From NCBI GenBank assembly GCA_030390025.1, contig CM059438.1:35774001-35838000 (forward strand): a stretch of DNA of 64,000 nt. Direction: 5' to 3'. The stretch is from Squalus acanthias (lineage: Eukaryota). The notes beneath the pieces are model-generated. The model did not search any database. It was not told the DNA's origin and saw only the letters and a program-made list of their open reading frames with translations. Position 1 is the first letter of the stretch, and the number at the start of each line of letters is the position of its first letter. This document shows, piece by piece, positions 2,559-47,896 of the stretch. The translations under genes and the position numbers were made by a program.

Positions 2559-2657
2559 CTTTAGTGTATCATAACCTTTCTGAAGATAGTTGGCACATCG
2601 GTCATGCTCTCCTACAGATGCATAAAACTTGCTCCACCAATCGATCGATTCATCCTT
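2559..2657 (-). CDS. MYOF: MYOF exon ~40: [33 protein letters not shown]
   Basis: 99 nt, phase 0-0, tag|AAG...AAG|gtaatg; conserved ferlin DWWSKFYAS motif. Confidence 0.95.
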
Positions 2658-3561
2658 CTACATACAAGAAACATTAAACCTCCTTAGCAAAATAACTTCA
2701 TTAAAAGACATGCAGTAATTACAGAACACTGAGCTCAAATAGTAATAGCTGCTGCCAGAGGAACTTGGGTCCCAACCTGCCCACAGACTGCTAAATGAGC
2801 TTTCACTATACTAGTTAATATGGATCTTCTTTACATCAGGGAGGGTCCCAGTCAGACTGCATGTGTAAGCCTTGGTTATGCGAAGTTGCCTTATAGGAGA
2901 GCAAATTTGCATATGCAAATCTTGTAAATTTATCTGTTGACTTCTGATCTGACTTTGCATTAGCATGGCTTCACAATTTAGTAAAATATTTTATAATGCA
3001 ACAAACCCAAATAGAATATTCTGTAGAGCTCACTTTAGAATGCAAGTATTTTCTCCCCCTGACCTTGTACGACTTAAGATATTAAAACATTTCTTCCCTT
3101 TATCCTTTCTATTCTGAAAAAGGTGATTCATGGTGGAATTATTTCCCAAGGGCAACAGCCTTTTAAGTCTCAACCAAAATCACTGTCCTTCATGTGAGGT
3201 GTGGACAGTGAATCTATTTGACCGTTACATTCAAAGCTCAATCTTTTCCTTGCCAGTATCATCATTTGCAAGCTTCCAGCAGGTTTCGTGGGATAGCCAA
3301 CAGCAGAAACTCTAATTATTTCCCCATTCCTTAGTCTTGGTAATGCATTCGCCCTCAGCTGGCCAAGCTCCAGGGATCCTGGTCTGTATAAACTTAGTGC
3401 CACACACGTATCCAGTAAAACATTGGGGTGGGGGGGGGTGGTGGAAGAGGGAAGAACAACCAATACATTGGATATTAGGGTTTACGATAATCCAATTTCT
3501 CCATTAATAAAACTTTAAAACACTCATCTACACTACAGAAAAAATTTACTTGACACTTGAT

Positions 3562-3905
3562 GGCCAAAATTTTGTTGAGGGAGGGAGAGAGCGTGCCCTG
3601 GATCCAGGAAGTAGGTATAAAGCCTCTTGGATGCAGCCATCCCTGCCTTTGTTTAATTGCCAGGTTTCACGAACTGTGAGAAACCCGTCCACAGGCAGTT
3701 AAAAACAAGATGGAGGAGAAAAGAGGCTTCCAGCCTCATTACAATATTTAAATTGTGGCAACGCCCCCGGCAGCAACTCGGTCGCCCGCCCCTCCTCCGG
3801 GGAAACTGGAAGTAGGCGGAATCAGGTCGGGATTCACATTTTTTTTACAATTTAACTGCCCCCACGCTCCAAATCCACCAGTTTTTGATGGGAAAATTCC
3901 GGCCA
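3562..3905. mobile_element. MITE-like non-autonomous DNA element
   Basis: Ends ggccaaaatttt / aaaattccggcc; internal sequence shared with 43365-43822. Confidence 0.6.
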
Positions 3906-3914
3906 AAGTCTCCA

Positions 3915-4290
3915 TTGCCAAGCCATACAGATCAGGAAGGTTCCAGTTTCAAGCTTGGTCTGTCCCAAGCTAGTTAATTTACCTGGGGTACCTTGGGTTA
4001 GGGAGACAAAAGAAAGACCAGCCAGGGTTTGTGCGTCTGCTTGCTATCCAGGAATTCCTAGTGCAAGCGCTCCTGTTTGAACCCTAGCCAAGGACGGGAT
4101 GGAGCACAAATGGCATCCCTAATCTAGACCATCTTTGTGATCAATGGATGTGCTCCAGAATCAGATAGCCTGCTGGCACTCACATGGGCAAGAAACCAGG
4201 TGACAACGGCCACCTTTGGGATGATCAGTGAGGAGGTCAAACACTCGGTAAAGGGGGAGGAAAGGAAATTGGGGGGGGAAAAAAAAAAAA
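3915..4290 (+). mobile_element. Ancient tRNA-derived SINE (AmnSINE2-like by recall), diverged copy
   Basis: Motifs agccatacagatcaggaaggttcc, gccagggtt and ttgctatccag are shared with about 11 other copies in the window. Confidence 0.6.
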
Positions 4291-4443
4291 CTGAATAGGC
4301 CAGAGGTGTCAATATTACCTCAAATATTGAGACAATGTCAAAATGTCCCCCTTAGTATTGGTTACATGAGAAAAATAAACTAATGCCTTTCCAGTTGCAC
4401 CTTGCATTTAACAAAGTAAAACATCAATCAAAATTAGACTTAC

Positions 4444-4452
4444 CTTTACAGT
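4444..4452 (-). CDS. MYOF: Candidate 9-nt MYOF microexon (TVK), exon ~39 position
   Basis: cag|ACT GTA AAG|gtaagt. Upstream CACTAAC branch point, pyrimidine tract and about 97 nt without AG. Phase 0-0. Confidence 0.7.
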
Positions 4453-5259
4453 CTGTTCACAGCATTGAATCGTTCATCAATACCACATCGAGAATGATGG
4501 AAAGCAAGTGGAGGAAAGAAAATGAAGTTAGTGATCAGAATAGTGAGAGCGCTTTTTACCAATCCAAATGGCTAACATGCATTTGTAGGTAGGAAAAAGT
4601 AATCAAAACAATTTTCTGTTGCAGGGGAGAGGGCTTCATTATGGATAAACCCACCATTCCCACCAAGAGAAGATTCCTAAAAGCATGAGTTTATTACATA
4701 CCTCTTCAGGAAGTCATCCAGCTAAAATTAGTTTCTAAACGTAGATTAATTTGCACTTTAACTACATGCTGAATCTTGTGTTAGGATTCAATGCAAAAAG
4801 GCTACAACAGATTAAAATTTCTGGTTTTGGTTAGTGTTGTATTTTTCCTCTCAAGTTGGATTTAAGTTGTTGGGAGAAATAAAACAAATGGACTATGTAG
4901 GTCTCTGCAAAAATGAAGGTATGTAATGAACAAGTATTGGTTAGTATCACCACTATTCAACTCCAAAAAAGGAAATTCTCTTACAATACAACCTTATGTA
5001 CTGATCATGCATGATGTTCTGTAAAGCTGTTAAATGACAGGGAATGAAACAGAAATCACCCGATTTATAGTTCAGTCATAAATCCAAAAGTTTCACATTT
5101 CCTTCATGGTATTTAGAGACACGATCCCTTTCTATCAGCCTACACAGTCTTCACTGAACTTTTTAAACCCACACAGCATTATTGACATGTGAAGACACAG
5201 TTCTTCATGCTATTTACTGTCTTACAATACAGTACAATTGCACAGCACGCAATACATAC

Positions 5260-5316
5260 CTGGGAAGAACGAAAGGCAGCCAGTCCTTCAGAATTTTTCA
5301 TATCAATGGGCACCAT
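5260..5316 (-). CDS. MYOF: Candidate 57-nt cassette exon MVPIDMKNSEGLAAFRSSQ
   Basis: aag|ATG...CAG|gtatgt, phase 0-0, no stop; pyrimidine tract set back from a weak AAG acceptor. Confidence 0.5.
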
Positions 5317-6765
5317 CTTTGATTTTTTCCAATAAGAAAAGATAGAGTTTAACAATGCTGTATAGTTTAAAGCTGGCCTTTGTCAGACTTTTGTGTGTCA
5401 TCGGTTTAACCCGTAGTCTGTGTAGGCTAGCATAGGAGATAGTGTCTTTATCGATTCAAAAGATTTTATCAACTGTATGCAAATGAGATTTGGGAGTAGA
5501 TTATTTTCATCTGTACATCAATAGAGAAACTTTTTTTTTTTGAAAAAGAAATCTTTTACCATCACAATCAAAAAGCGGTGTCTGCCAATAGCTAGCTTTC
5601 TGTGGAATTCTTAACAGTAGGGTCCTAAATCTAAACAAAGGAAACTACAAAAGGTATGAGGAGTGAGTTGGCTATCAGATTGGGGAGCTTCATTAAAAGG
5701 CATGATTGTGGATTGGCAATGGCTAACATTTATGGAACGAATGCATGAATTGCAACAGTTATACATTCCTTTCTGGCGCAAAAACACAAGAAAAAGTGGC
5801 CCAACCATGGCTAACAAAATAAATTAAAGGATAGTATTAGATCCAAAGAGGAGTCATATAAAGTTGCCAGAAAAAGTAGCAAGCTTGAGAATTGGGAGCA
5901 GTTTAGAATTCAGCAAAAAAGGACCAAGAGATTGATTACGAGGGGGGGATAAAGAGAATACGAGAGTAAACTTGCAAGGAACAAAAGCAGACTGTAAAAT
6001 CTTCTACAAGTATGTAAAAAGAAAGAGATTAGTGAAGACAAATGTACGTCCTTACAGTCAGAAATGGGAGAATTTATAATGGGGAACAAGGAAATGGCAG
6101 AACAATTAAACAAATACTTTGGTTCTGTCTTCACGGAAGAGGACAAATATTTTCCCAGAAATGCTAGGGAACCAAGGGTCTAGTGAGAAGGAGGAATTAA
6201 AAGAAGTTATTAGTAAAAAAAGTGCTGGAGAAATTAATGGGACTGAAAGCCGATAAATCCCCAGGGTCTGAATCTGCATCCCAGAGTACTAAAAAAGGAG
6301 GTAGCCATGGAAATAGTGGATGCATTGGTTGTCATCTTCCAAAATTCTAGATTATGGAACTGTTCCTGCAGATTGGAGGATGGCAAATGTAACCCCACTA
6401 TTTAAAAAAAGAGAAAACAGGGAACTACAGACCGGTTAGCCTAATATCAGTAGTAGGGAAAATGCTAGAGTCTATTATAAAGGATGTGATAATAGGACAC
6501 TTAGAAAATATCAACAGGATTAGACAAAGTCAACATGGATTAATGAAAGGGAAATCATGTTTGACAAACCTACTGGAGTTTTTGAGGATGTAACTGGTAG
6601 AATAGATAAGGGAGAACCAGTGGATGTGGTGTATTTGGATTTTCAGAAGGCCTTTGATAAAGTCCCACATAAGAGGTTAGTGTGCAAAATTAAAGCACAT
6701 GGGATTGGGGTAATATACTGGCATGGATTGAAAATTGGTTAACAGACAGGAAACAGTAGGAATAA

Positions 6766-6853
6766 TCATAGAAAGTTACAGCATGGAAGGAGGCCATTTC
6801 GGCCCATCGTGTCTGCGCCAGCCGACAAAGAGCTATCCAGCCTAAGCTGAAGA
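6766..6853 (-). mobile_element. Short LINE/SINE 3'-tail fragment nested antisense inside the CR1
   Basis: Interrupts ggaataa^aatggg of the host (uninterrupted in the 15137-16531 copy); resembles 23821-23900. Confidence 0.75.
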
Positions 6854-7598
6854 AATGGGTCTTTTTCGGGGTGGCAGGCGGTGACTAGTGGGATACCGCA
6901 GGGATCAGTGCTCGGGCCCCAGCTATTCACAATATATATCAATGATTTGGATGAGGGAACCAAATGTAACATTTCCAAGTTTGCTGACGACATGAAACTA
7001 GGTGGGATTGTGAGTTGTGAGGGAGGATGCAAAGAGGCTTCAAGGCGATTTAGACAAGTTGAGTGAGTGGGCAAATACATGGCAGATGCAGTATAACGTG
7101 GATAAATGTGAAGTTATCCACTTCGGTCGGAAAAACAGAAAGGTAGAGTATTATTTAAATGGCGATAGATTGGGAAATGTTGATGTACAAAAGGGACCTG
7201 GGTGTCCTTGTATACCAGTCACTGAAAGCAAACATGCAGGTGCAGCAAGCAGTTAGGAAGGCAAATGGTATGTTGGCCTTCATTGCAAGAGGATGGGAGT
7301 ACAGGAGCAAGGATGTCTTATTACAGTTATACAGGGCCTTGGTGAGACCACACCTGGAGTACTGTGTGCAGTTTTGGTCTCCTTACCCAAGAAAGGATAT
7401 ACTTGCCACAGGGGGACTGCAGCAAAGGTTCACCAGATTGATTCCTGGGATGGCAGGTCTGTCGTATGAGGAGAGATTGGGTCGACTAGGCCTGTTTTCA
7501 CTAGAGTTTAGAAGAATGAGAGGGGATCTCATTGAAATGTATAAAATTCTGACCGGGCTAGACAGACTGGATGCAGGGTGGATGTTTCCCCTGGCTGT

Positions 7599-7604
7599 GG
7601 GGGG

Positions 7605-7642
<38 letters not shown>
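7599..7642 (+). repeat. Poly-G tract (uninterrupted G run 7608-7642) within CR1
   Basis: Directly visible; other CR1 copies have only a short G run here. Confidence 0.9.
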
Positions 7643-7643
<1 letters not shown>

Positions 7644-8559
7644 GGGAGGAGGAGGGAAGAGGTCTAGACCAAGGTCAGTGTCTCAGGATATGGGGTAGGA
7701 CATTTTAGGACTGAGATGAGGAGAAATTTCTTCACTCGAGGGTGGTGAACCTGTGGAATTCTCTACCACAGAAGGCTGGAGGCCAAGTCACTGAATATAT
7801 TTAAGGAGATAGATAGATTTCTAGACACAAAAGGCATCAAGGGGTATGGGGAGAGAGAGGATCAGCCATGATCATATTGAATAGCGGAGCAGGCTCGAAG
7901 GGCCTACTCCTGCTCCTATTTTTCTATGTTTCTAACCATGGAGGCTCCATACTAGGGGTTTCATTTTACGATACATACCAGTATTAAAAATTTCATATGC
8001 CAACACAAAATTCAGAATTTTAGGTGAAGGTGTAACGCACAAAAAATTACAACTGCCTCCATTGTACAAAATGTGCAAATCCATACTGTGAAGAGCTTGT
8101 TACGATAAATCTCATAAGCTTCAGCTTTGAAGATTCTCCAGGCAAACCCCACACAGAAATAAACCAGATTTGAAGTAAAAACAGAAAGCTCAGAAGAGCA
8201 TTCTTATTGGAATATGTCCCGTATTAAAAAAAAACTTGCATTTTAGTACCTTTTACATAATGTTCAGAGCAGCATTGGATGCTAGAAGTTACTATATGAA
8301 GCAACAGAAAGGATTGAAAACAGAAATAAACCTTCAACAGTGGCAGCAACTCCAGTAAACATAGGTCATTGATTCTGAAGCAGGTTATTCGTTTTTTTTT
8401 TTTTTTAAATCGGTCATCATATTCAAGTGTATTCTGGGAACAAATAGCCTTTATTTGGGCTTTAAGCATTAGCCGATAATCCAGTTGTAGTTGTACTTGC
8501 TTGAGAAGGTCAAGATTGGACGACTTCTTCTCCCCCTGCCCCCCCCCCCCCCAAATCAC

Positions 8560-8740
8560 AGCAGAGGCAGATCCCGTCCGACATGGGCACTGTGCCAGCT
8601 TAATTCACTGGATAATTACATCAGGACGACAATTACTGCCCCGGCTGAGATAAGCAAACTCAGCACAAACCCAGGATTCTGTTAATATGTACGGCTCAAT
8701 ATTACTGGATGGAGTTCATTTATGCACTAGCTATTTGGAG
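8560..8740 (-). mobile_element. AmnSINE2-like SINE 5' fragment
   Basis: Reverse complement carries gtgctgagtttgcttatctcagccggg. Confidence 0.45.
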
Positions 8741-9152
8741 ACAAGTGAACTAACTTGAGACTCAGACCCAGTTACCTTGCATATCTACACTATAAAACAT
8801 TTGAAATGGGATTATTTGGTAGTGATTTGATGGATTGATAAGTAAAAGATGCAAGATGGGAGTTTATGTAGGACTGAAATTCATAAATATCCTTAGATTT
8901 ACGGTTTGTGAAGTGGTGATTTCCACACATTTCAATTAGTTTTCAGTGCAAATCCTAATAGATTAGAATTAGCAGGTTTCCCAACTTCACAATTGAGCCA
9001 GGTTTCACCAAAAGAGCTTACTTTAGTATTGCTAATGAAAGTGAAACCTGAATTTAAAGAATTGTCTTCTCTCCTTTTCCTCTTCACCTGTGATGCTGCT
9101 CAAGATTTCTTGGAGGAAAGTAGAATAGTTGGAATATTAAAAAGGAAGTTTC

Positions 9153-9530
9153 TCTGATGGCTTAGAAGTTAAGGTGCCACCTTTGAGCCATGGTCGTCCA
9201 GGAACATCCCAGAATTGATTTACTTTGAGTTAACCAATCTCAGCCAAGAGAGCACAAGTGGCCACAGCATGCTCAGGTTAGGAAAAGTAAACAAAATAGA
9301 CAGGTCTGTCACTTTCCAGTAATCTCTGCTGAAAGTGTTGTGCTGATGCTGGACAAGAACAGAATCAGACTCAGCTGCGATATCTTCCACAGTCCAATAG
9401 CCTGCCGACAAGATTCGGACACGAATCGCCACTTGGTAAGGATTAAAATCTCTACCCCCTTCAAACCGTGGACCCATATCCCAAGCTGCCAGTACTTTAA
9501 GAGTGGCCGGGGTGGGGGGGAGAAAGAGAG
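9153..9530 (+). mobile_element. AmnSINE2-like SINE, diverged
   Basis: Family motifs gagttaaccaatctcagcc and aatagcctgccgaca. Confidence 0.55.
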
Positions 9531-10235
9531 CTTGAATAGTTAAGATATATATAAAAAGTAAATAGTAAAAACCAAGAGAGAATGGGAAAGGGGAGCGAAT
9601 AAGAGACAGAATCAGATGTAAACTTAATTTAAAAAGCTATTTCAAGCATTCCTATTTTGACATGCAAGTAGCTTTATTGATGTAACATTCAAGGGGAAGG
9701 GAGGGATATTTGTCAGATCATGTGAGCAGAGAAAAAAATGGCTGGCCTAGGGATGTGAAGACTCCTAGAGCTACCGACAGTGTTAAATCTTTACCAATTA
9801 AAAGATATCATGGTCTGTTGCGCTTTTCATACTGTTTAAGTTTTTAATCTTTAGCATAGGAGGTTAATTTTCTTTGGGTGAAAAAGAGGGGGAACAACTA
9901 CCTGCAAAATTAATTGCAAACCAGAGTACATTCATAGACATAAAATAATATGTACAAGATTGCTAGACATGACATACTTTTATGAATTGGGACCCTGAGT
10001 GAATGCTGAAGTCAATTGTAACAAAGTGAGCTTACAATTCATTCTAATTTAGAGATCAAGCATTTCTAGCAGAAAGTGCTAGCTACTGGCAGACAGTTTA
10101 ACTACAAGACAATATATGTAGCAGATACTGGCACTCCCATAATTTCATGCAACATACAGTGGTAGAAAAAAAATCCAGTGTAACCACCTAAACCCTGAGT
10201 ATTGTCATCTCTTTGTATTCACTTTCCATACATAC

Positions 10236-10292
10236 ATGCAGTGCTGATGAAGTAGTCATTTTGACGACTGCTTTGGTCATACTGTCTACAAA
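10236..10292 (-). CDS. MYOF: MYOF exon 38a-like cassette FVDSMTKAVVKMTTSSALH
   Basis: ttctaactttcag|TTT...CAT|gtatgt, 57 nt, phase 0-0; resembles the recalled human exon 38a peptide CLSSMSTALSKMASPATVH. Confidence 0.85.
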
Positions 10293-10900
10293 CTGAAAGT
10301 TAGAACACATCGTGTGAGTTCCATCTAGTGTGGGTTTGAAAAGTTATACTCTTTACCCACGCCACTCACTCGACCAATATTAAAATGTCAAAACGTTTCA
10401 TCAGCCCTACACATTACAGTTTGCACAGATTACATAATGGGCCTAGCAACACAGCAAACATACAATCTGTAAAATAATAGAAATACATTATGCAATCCAT
10501 AGCATACAAAAACAAAATGTAATAGAATCCAGGCCACTGCATCAATAGAGACCAGACTCAGGTTTGTATTGAAAATGTCTCAAGAATTGGTATTCTAAAC
10601 TCTTATCCAAATTGGTCAACAATTTGCGGCATGATTTACCTCGAGCTTGCCAGTGTTTGGATTGAACAGTACTTCTTCGTGGATTATTAACCTTAAACAA
10701 ATCACATCCTGTAGCATGCCAATACATCATCTGTTCAATTCACAAACTGATTTTAATCCTGAGAGAGTTCTCGCCCCACAGAATATTTAAGTTACTTCTT
10801 TGGTTTTGTGAGGGGGAAAAAAAAGTGATCGCAGGAAGTTCACTTAAATACCAAAGCTTTGAATGATTTTTCCTGTCACTAAAAAGATGGAGCACATTAC

Positions 10901-10974
10901 CTGTGATTCCAGGAGAGGCTTTTGGTTGTCTTCCACATCAATGACACAATCGCGAGCGCTTGAAAGTAGAGATG
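10901..10974 (-). CDS. MYOF: MYOF exon ~38: (A)SLLSSARDCVIDVEDNQKPLLESQ
   Basis: 74 nt, phase 1-0, GT-AG. Confidence 0.9.
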
Positions 10975-11295: not shown

Positions 11296-11461
11296 CTTTT
11301 GATTGCATTCCACCAGTCTGCTTTGCAGCATATGGATCGATCCGATATTCTTGCAGAGAATGAATTGTACACTGTCCGACGACCGGCTTACGCCCAAACG
11401 GCCTGTGGTCAATGATCTTTATGACAATAGGAGGGGTGTACATTTCTTCTTTTGGAAGAAG
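11296..11461 (-). CDS. MYOF: MYOF exon ~37: [55 protein letters not shown]
   Basis: 166 nt, phase 0-1, GT-AG. Confidence 0.95.
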
Positions 11462-15136: not shown

Positions 15137-16531
15137 GAAACATAGAAGATAGGAGTAGGCCATTCGGCCCCTCGAGCCTGCTCCGCCATTTAATGAGATC
15201 ATGGCTGATCATCCAAATTCAGTACCCTGTCCCTGCTTTCTCCCCATATCCCTTTAGCCTCAAGAAATATATCTAACTCCTTCTTGAATACATTTAATGA
15301 ATTGGCCTCAACTGCCTTGTGTGGTAGAGAATTCTACAGGTTCACCACTCTCTGGGTGAAGAAATTCCTCCTCATCTCAGTCCTAAATGGCTTACCCCTT
15401 ATCCTTAGACTGTGACCCCTGGTTCTGGACTCCCCTGCTATCGGGAACAGCATTCCTGCATCTAGTCTGTCTAGTCCTGTTAGAATTTTATAAGTTTCAA
15501 TGAGAGCCCCTCTCATTCTTCTAAACTTTAGCAAATATAAGCCTAATCGACCCAATCGCTCCTTATACGTCATTCCTGCCATTCCAGGTATCAGTCTGGT
15601 GAATCTTCGCTGCACTCTCTCCATGGCAAGAACATCCTTCCTCAGATAAGGCGACCAAAACTGCACACAATACTCAAGGTGTGGTCTCACCAAGGCCCTG
15701 TACAACTGCAGCAAGACATCCTTGCTCCTGTACTCGAATCCTCTCACTATGAAGGCCAACATACCATTTGCCTTCTTAACCACCTGTTGCAGCTGCATGC
15801 TTACCTTCAGTGACTGGTGCACAAGGAAACCCAGGTCTCGTTGCACTTCCCCTTTTCCCAATCTATTGACGTTCAGATAATAATCTGTCTTCCTGTTTTT
15901 GCCACCAAAGTGGATAATCTCGCATTTATCCACATTATACTGCATCTGCCCAATCCCCCAATCTGTCCAAATCATACTGGAGTTTCTCTGCATCCTCCTC
16001 ACAGCACACACACACCCACCCAGCTTTGTGTCATCTGCAAACTTGGAGATATTACATCTAGTTCCCTCATATATAGTGCGGTCCGAGCACCGATCCCTGC
16101 GGTACCCCACTAGTCACTGTCTGCCACTCGGAATAATACCCGTTTATTCCAACTCTTTGCTTTCTGTCTGCCAACCAGTTTTCTATCCAAGTCAGTACCT
16201 TACCCCCATGTGCTTTAACTTTGCACGCTAATCTCTTATGCGGAACCTTATCGAAAGCCTTCTGAAAGTCCAAATACACCACATCCACTGGTTCTCCCTT
16301 ATCTATTCTACCAGTTACATCCTCAAAAAATTCCAGTAGATTAGTCAAGCATGATTCACCTTTTGTAAATCCATGTTGACTTTGTCCGATCCGGTCACCG
16401 TTTTCTAAGTGCTCTGCTATTACATCTTTTATAATGGACTCTAGCATTTTCCCCACTACCGATGTCAGGCTTACCGGTTTATAATTCCCCGTTTTCTCTC
16501 TACCACCTTTTTAAAGATAGTGGGGTTACAT
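15137..16531 (-). mobile_element. 5'-truncated CR1-like LINE (subfamily A)
   Basis: RT ORFs 16067-16456 and 15334-16110 (QHGF, LDFQKAFDKVPH, GVPQGSVLGP, KFADDTKL); same 3' tail as 5615-7934. Confidence 0.95.
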
Positions 16532-23817: not shown

Positions 23818-25018
23818 GAATCTTAGAATAGTACAGCACAGGAGGCCATTCTGTCCATTGAGTCTGTGCCAGCTCTTTCGAAGAGCAGTCCAGTTAGTCC
23901 CACCCCCCGCTCTTTCCTCATATCCCTGCAATTTTTTTCCTTTAGAAGGCTACTATTGAATCTGTATCTATCACCCTATCAAGCAGTGCATTCCAAATCC
24001 TAATCACTCGTGTAAAAAACGTGTTCTCATGTCGCCTCTAGTTCTTTTGCCAATCACCTTAAATCTGTGCCCTCTGGTTATCAACCCTTCAGCCATTGGA
24101 AACAGTTTCTCCTTATTTACGCCATCTAAATCCTTCATGATTCTCTCAAATCTCCTCTTGGCCTTCTCTGCTCCAAGGACAACAACCCCAGCTTCTCTAG
24201 TCTATACATGTAACTGTAATCCCTCATCCCTGGAACCATTCTAATAAATCTCTTCTGTACCCTCTCCAAAGCCTTCACATCCTTCCTAAAGTGTGGTGCC
24301 CAGAATTAGACAATACTCCAGCTGGGGCCGAACTAGTGTTTTACACAGGTTTAGCATAACTTCCTGGCTTTTGTACTCTATGCCTCTATTTATAAAGCCC
24401 AGGATCCCATATGCTTTATTAACTGCTTTGTTAACCGGTCCTGCCACCTTCAAAAGATTTGTGCACAAACACCCCTAGGTGTCCCTTTTCTTCCACCCAC
24501 TTTAAAATTGTACCATTTAGCTTGTATTATCGCTCCTCATTCTTCCTACCAAAATGCACCACCTCACACTTTACTGCATTGAATTGCATCTGCCATGTGT
24601 CCACCCATTCCACCAGCTTGTTTATATCCTCTTGAAGTCTATAACTATCTTTCTCACTGGTTTACTACACTTCCAAGTTTCAGGTCACCTGCAAATTTCA
24701 AAATTGCACCCTGTACCCCCAAATGCAAGTCATTAAATGTACATCAAAAACAGCAGCAGTTCTAGTACTGATCCCTGGGGAACACCACTGTACACCTCCC
24801 TCCAGTCCAAAACCACAACAGTTTTTAATCCCTTAACCAATTTTGCATCCCTGCTGCTACTGCCCTTTTTATCCCATGGGCTTCAACTTTGCTAACAAGC
24901 CTAATATGTGGCACTTTATCAAATGCCTTTTGAATGTTGTGAATATGGACATCAACTACACTGCCCTCATCCACCCAATCTTAGCTCATCAAAAATCTCA
25001 ATCAAGTTAGTCAAACAC
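23818..25018 (-). mobile_element. CR1-like LINE (subfamily B), degenerate RT
   Basis: GFINRGIEYKS, LVRPQLEYC and remnants of GVPQGS and AFDKVPH on the minus strand. Confidence 0.88.
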
Positions 25019-47715: not shown

Positions 47716-47860
47716 AAGTCTCTGTATTATTGTATAATTTTTTCAAGTCAAATTCACCCAGTCAGTAATACATGTTTGTACATCAGCTTTATCCTTCCCC
47801 AGCCCACACTAAATCTCCCTTTTGGCAATGGAGGCTCAAAGATAGACCAAGAAATAAAAC

Positions 47861-47896
47861 CTTCATTTGCTGGAGAAGCCCCAATTCCCTCATCAT
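47861..47896 (-). CDS. MYOF: Candidate 36-nt cassette exon (D)DEGIGASPANE, exon-17 position
   Basis: ttctaac branch point, long pyrimidine tract, cag|AT...GAAG|gtttta; phase 1-1, no stop. Confidence 0.6.

Follow-up and report, generated by a model that had tools for sequence, protein, structure and literature searches.

Optional in-frame exons in the C2E loop of myoferlin in Squalus acanthias and their counterparts in other vertebrates

How many optional exons does a shark myoferlin gene carry in the interval that encodes the ferlin cleavage loop, and what might they do there? The question is raised by a 64,000 nucleotide (nt) stretch of the Squalus acanthias genome (assembly GCA_030390025.1, contig CM059438.1, positions 35,774,001 to 35,838,000), hereafter the window. 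Its host gene is myoferlin, on the minus strand: the exon at 11297-11461 retrieves myoferlins as best matches, and in tblastn searches two myoferlins are colinear along the window, most exons being 77-96% identical to Heptranchias myoferlin. The interval studied (2658-10900; 8,243 nt) separates the exon at 10974-10901 from the exon at 2657-2559, called exons 38 and 40 after the numbering of the original prediction. That prediction had proposed four cassette exons here, which we call A, D, B and C in the direction of transcription. It appears probable to us that A, B and C are real in-frame cassettes, combined to add 0-41 residues to a loop of the C2E domain and likely changing its protease exposure and slack, and that D is likely intron. 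The anatomy by itself, three optional exons in the loop, is very likely, while the choice between a tuning of cleavage and a role in tethering or binding is close to even.

All four units were found on the minus strand where they had been proposed, bounded by AG and GT, stop-free in phase 0 and 57, 66, 57 and 9 nt long (A, D, B and C). The interval holds 263 stop-free AG..GT units of 9-99 nt with lengths divisible by three, so that the sequence alone proves little, and the pattern is not above chance. Splice matrices were built from 25 donors and 25 acceptors of the gene, and in their ranking of the 263 units C came 1st, with A at 13th, B at 37th and D at 47th. At both sites at once, 12 units (D among them) score at least as well as D; from 24 control introns (38,617 bases) the expected number is 11.95. 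On such grounds only C stands out.

Homologues carry A, B and C further. Annotated myoferlin records of other chondrichthyans were compared for conservation, and the three exons recur in them. We used 57 chondrichthyan records (two source clusters, of 17 and 20 members, contributed 15 each) and 406 others, giving 463 linkers. Each of the three exons lies in phase 0 between the upstream linker exon and the exon with the DWWSKF motif, and most of the 18 chondrichthyan species have each one annotated (Table 1), Callorhinchus having all three. After three models lacking the end of the upstream exon were dropped, 54 chondrichthyan records could be classified: 13 contain no cassette, 11 C, nine ABC, eight AC, seven A and six BC, counts that show presence and not frequency. 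The combinatorial use that had been predicted is thus seen in six of the eight possible combinations, which add 0, 3, 19, 22 or 41 residues. Inclusion of A, B and C is optional and leaves the frame unchanged in these annotations; nothing comparable was found for D. A region search with A, B and C together (word-limited) returned only two shark clusters among four candidates. We rejected the reading of A and B, both 57 nt, as a mutually exclusive tandem pair, as the two occur together in nine records and have no significant likeness.

Table 1. Features of the myoferlin linker interval and its surroundings, in window coordinates
Feature	Positions	Strand	Details and evidence
Constitutive upstream exon (exon 38)	10901..10974	-	74 nt, phase-0 end; tblastn to myoferlins; joint 10974/11296 in X1, X2 and X5
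Cassette A	10236..10292	-	57 nt, 19 residues; annotated in 16/18 chondrichthyan species; same-length exon at the same place in bony vertebrates
Unit D, likely ordinary intron rather than exon	9022..9087	-	66 nt; 0/463 linkers; chance-level scores; RNA contigs cross unspliced
Fragment of a LINE-type retroelement, broken and antisense to myoferlin; intron filler	5650..7950 (ends approximate)	+	Pfam RVT_1; repeat depth
Cassette B	5260..5316	-	57 nt, 19 residues; 12/18 chondrichthyan species; X1 contig ends at 5289
Microexon C	4444..4452	-	9 nt, 3 residues; 15/18 species; X2 joint; top splice score of 263
Tandem acceptor TAG/AAG (NAGNAG)	2655..2659	-	Sequence; X2 joint; first AG alone seen used
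Constitutive downstream exon (exon 40, DWWSKF motif)	2559..2657	-	99 nt; tblastn; covered in X1, X2 and X5

Four of 17 listed runs (X1, X2, X5 and X13) were compared with the window; none is registered as RNA. X1, X2 and X5 are identified as RNA because the spliced joint 10974/11296 is present in them and absent from X13, a DNA-like run of a relative. Their intron pieces differ little from the window (5 in 846 and 6 in 1203 letters), and they therefore come from the same or a very close species. Contigs of this kind drop rare forms. In one X2 contig 10901 is followed by the letters of C and then by 2659, which is exon 38 spliced to C and C to exon 40, with A and B skipped. Contig ends were read as branch points, assuming 31-letter words. 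In X1 two successive intron contigs meet at 5289, the end of one and the start of the next, which is where a join of exon 38 to B and use of the B donor should place them; X1 and X2 each have an intron contig that extends 17 letters beyond 4444, the extension expected if exon 38 is joined to C. By hand count, the B bin in X1 has a depth of 25.7, where the two listed intron contigs would give about 16. Of the four proposed cassettes, A, B and C are thus borne out by homologues, C and B by RNA contigs as well, and D has found no confirmation.

From the contigs an order of splicing may also be read. In X1 and X2, the intron upstream of C is retained in contigs (4444-5647) that do have a splice to exon 40, and neither run covers 2711-3332. 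These contigs are likely a partly spliced intermediate from which the downstream intron was removed first.

Teleosts, bichir, lizard, turtle, birds and mammals have a counterpart of cassette A, 19-20 residues long, in the same position. The homology of A to the alternative exon of mammalian myoferlin follows from the shared length and place and a graded likeness through teleosts; the pairwise score alone is modest (at most 38). We take this mammalian exon to be the one labelled exon 38a. C occupies the position of a 9-12 nt microexon of bony vertebrates, and it has the properties of a microexon: 9 nt, frame-preserving, spliced in X2 and kept in most of the species. Microexons of the neural SRRM4 type have a UGC near the acceptor, a long AG-free zone and neural-restricted inclusion. 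C has a UGC at -12, a 97-nt AG-exclusion zone and a branch-like site at -79, but its presence in most isoforms argues against neural restriction. To judge from the records compared, A and C are old and extend across the jawed vertebrates. For jawless fishes, representatives at 50% identity gave two matches, neither with the DWW motif, in a search that did not reach lampreys and hagfish.

The mammalian linker is the same interval of the same gene in the same phase, with a 19-residue A-type exon of the same pattern and a microexon of 12 nt in place of the 9 nt of C. Both are optional: the A-type exon is found in mouse, lynx, langur, zebra and pig records, the microexon is skipped in cat, seal and hamster records, and mammalian records with and without each of the two exist. 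The original prediction of a splice code larger than a single mammalian cassette therefore needs adjusting; mammals already have two, and what sharks have in addition is B.

B was found in 15 of the 57 chondrichthyan records, always accompanied by C, and in none of the 406 others, in which the best score (27) is that of shuffled sequence. It is identical to Heptranchias at 16 of 19 residues, and is 19 residues long in the window, Heptranchias, Heterodontus and Callorhinchus and 16 residues in nine other sharks. Homology to the mammalian alternative exon was not found (B against A, shuffle p 0.33-0.93), and B is not its orthologue, though its working may be similar. A and C are of known kinds, and B is an extra cassette limited, among the records compared, to chondrichthyans. 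It is chondrichthyan-wide, and probably either arose in that line or disappeared from the bony vertebrates. The region of its acceptor (5317-5360) is unusual, being purine-rich with a score of -4.4 and a pyrimidine tract set back; its donor is very strong, and a GCATG lies 50 nt downstream. These features together may explain regulated inclusion. The first codon of B was considered as the start of a short transcript and rejected, as the Met is not kept and is Thr or Ile in several species.

A possible source of B emerged when HMMER matched it to the 3' half of human myoferlin's constitutive upstream exon. Against a profile of 69 such upstream half-exons, the four 19-residue forms of B gave shuffle p values of 0.005-0.04 and the 16-residue form 0.11, compared with 0.10-0.81 for A, D and the extra exons of other lineages; the test was devised after the HMMER match had been seen and the four forms are related, so the values are a hint only. 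Pairwise protein and DNA tests of B against the upstream exon were mostly not significant. An origin of B by old tandem duplication of the 3' half of exon 38, with the cut-site segment then present in a second, optional copy in cartilaginous fishes, is doubtful. The standard myoferlin cut site reportedly lies in exon 38. If the duplication were true, then together with separate gains in bichir, eels and frogs it would make the anchor loop of C2E a recurrent, splice-tuned dial, one that would set how much mini-myoferlin is released.

As had been proposed, the interval is that of the ferlin cleavage loop and holds several frame-preserving cassettes. The insertion point falls after residue 1442 of the 2061-residue mammalian form, whose numbering agrees with the solved chain after an offset of 51 residues (the offset is our own deduction). 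In the cryo-electron microscopy report, C2E has a loop inserted between its strands 6 and 7 (residues 1395-1498); the part 1447-1498, the anchor loop, is wrapped around C2F and has been proposed to couple the movement of the two domains (PMC12264198). The cassettes are therefore inside the C2E loop just before the anchor, and not in a plain inter-domain linker. According to two studies, dysferlin is cut by calpain only when exon 40a is included, the cut frees a membrane-anchored two-C2 module, and the site tolerates sequence change, structure mattering more than motif (PMC4230592, PMC8650162). The second of these also reports myoferlin cut within an alternative exon (PMC8650162, citing Piper 2017), and according to a further source myoferlin cutting can be independent of calpain (PMC6770723). 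Exon 40a resembles the shark cassettes as an optional in-frame exon just before the DWWSKF exon; it differs in belonging to a paralogous gene, in being the single cassette described there and in its poorly conserved sequence.

By this precedent A would act as the mammalian alternative exon does, providing one more cut site for the release of the C-terminal two-C2 module. B would add a further flexible stretch, with the same role in cutting or as a longer tether, and C would fine-tune the spacing.

Several points weigh against this reading. A was not seen spliced among the joints listed for X1, X2 and X5; an X5 contig crosses it unbroken, while X1 and X2 have no cover there and so are not evidence against it. 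The RNA evidence for B is indirect and depends on the assumed word length. The combinations come from automated annotation, in which many models have the same linker, and their counts are therefore not independent. B was not found in 14 batoid records of five species and may for that reason be dispensable. An effect on cleavage in a shark ferlin is something we infer. Finally, one study has the standard human myoferlin construct already cut, constitutively (PMC4230592); this construct appears to lack A, going by the 2061-residue mammalian records. Constitutive cutting means that the cassettes cannot be a simple on/off switch, and it is more likely, in our analysis, that they would grade cutting than switch it on.

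The strongest alternative, possible although clearly less probable than the three-cassette reading with altered protease exposure, is that the cassettes act mainly as a switch of tether length or binding surface, making the loop from C2E to the anchor around C2F longer and so altering the coupled membrane movement of C2E and C2F, or supplying short partner-binding helices. An anchor loop that wraps C2F, with the two domains moving jointly, would fit this (PMC12264198), as would the keeping of A and B residues across about 18 species, unlike the sequence-tolerant exon 40a of dysferlin. Window A also shows an amphipathic pattern (shuffle p 0.02), one not seen in mouse and teleost A. However, the mammalian precedent links the alternative exon at this place to cleavage, and no conclusion can be drawn from the structure model: an AlphaFold fragment of Heterodontus with A, B and C placed helices over A and part of B at a mean predicted local distance difference test (pLDDT) value of 57.5, with the loop below 50, and was not used as evidence.

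It is rather unlikely that the loop simply tolerates insertions, with exons coming and going near-neutrally and B lacking a specific job. Such drift would accommodate the absence of B from the batoid records, its shorter form in several sharks, and the unrelated extra exons at the same place in other lineages. These are 13 residues long in Polypterus, about 10 in eels and bonefish (three elopomorph fishes and Albula) and 12 in the frog Pelobates (records P0277, P0279, P0199, P0201, P0202, P0044 and P0340). They share the loop and the frame with the shark cassettes but have no sequence likeness to B. Polypterus, like the shark, has three optional or short exons in the interval, although its extra exon is upstream of A whereas B is downstream. 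Extra cassettes are thus not a peculiarity of sharks. Against near-neutrality, the 3' half of B is kept from Callorhinchus to sharks, and the X13 piece containing B and C is the least diverged of the six listed (77/1816, a coarse measure that is not at exon level).

That all four units are used, D being a young, species-restricted or rare-tissue cassette, is highly improbable: its open frame, length divisible by three and GTAAGC donor, the X1 contig that starts exactly at its acceptor (9087), and the restriction of the RNA view to listed joints of three runs of unrecorded tissue whose contigs drop rare variants are outweighed by its match to none of the 463 linkers (best score 24, against a mean best of 26 for shuffled D), chance-level splice scores, contigs of X2 and X5 that cross it unbroken and of X1 that cross its donor, and a divergence in X13 (57/697) that is the highest among the pieces listed. 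The AG-exclusion zone of D is 6 nt, and a genome search finds D in a single copy, so that it is no obvious piece of a repeat. An X1 contig stops at 9094 and its successor begins at 9087, where a join of exon 38 to D predicts ends at 9094 and 9065; missing coverage or a variant among the six final intron bases may account for the break. Depth over the D bin in X1 (8.7) is fully explained by intron contigs. At positions 9022 and 9047, inside D, the letter in X1, X2, X5 and X13 differs from the window. D was rejected as an exon and is likely intron.

The downstream NAGNAG acceptor is present as predicted. A role for it in a splice code found no support: the X2 joint uses the first acceptor, use of the second was not seen in the RNA contigs of X1, X2 and X5, and the codon is not kept as NAG across species, being Val in a stingray. 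Both forms occur only in Callorhinchus models of the UniRef/Ensembl type, and a conserved switch was rejected as unsupported.

Two ferlin paralogues with the same DWW exon were found in the genome, at L004 (G000:C2:7078976) and L005 (G000:C17:56784136), one of which is presumably dysferlin-like; L005 shows a tandem AG context at its acceptor as well. The matching introns of both yielded no exon like A or B, a test that is weak for diverged exons. Among the matches listed from the open-licence literature, no title concerned a chondrichthyan B, shark ferlin splicing or a MYOF microexon, and no paper paired myoferlin with 38a or with a cleavage site and exon 38.

Elsewhere in the interval, the long interspersed nuclear element (LINE)-type fragment gave Pfam RVT_1 matches in three of the four pieces scanned, two at or above the curated cut-off, and has very high repeat depth. 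A 48-nt run of G lies within it at 7599-7646, and similar fragments occur near 16070-16510 and 24138-24980. A short exon of about 13 codons at 47860-47896 is likely the other common optional exon of myoferlin, because many myoferlin isoform pairs differ by 13 residues.

Public automated gene models of other sharks already include A, B and C, and the analysis shows no new mechanism, so that the gain is modest. What the comparison shows is that the optional exon tied to cutting of mammalian myoferlin is as old as the jawed vertebrates, and that further cassettes were added to the surrounding loop on several occasions. Calpain sites follow structure over motif, and the cassettes offer naturally occurring variants with which to study what lets a ferlin loop be cut.

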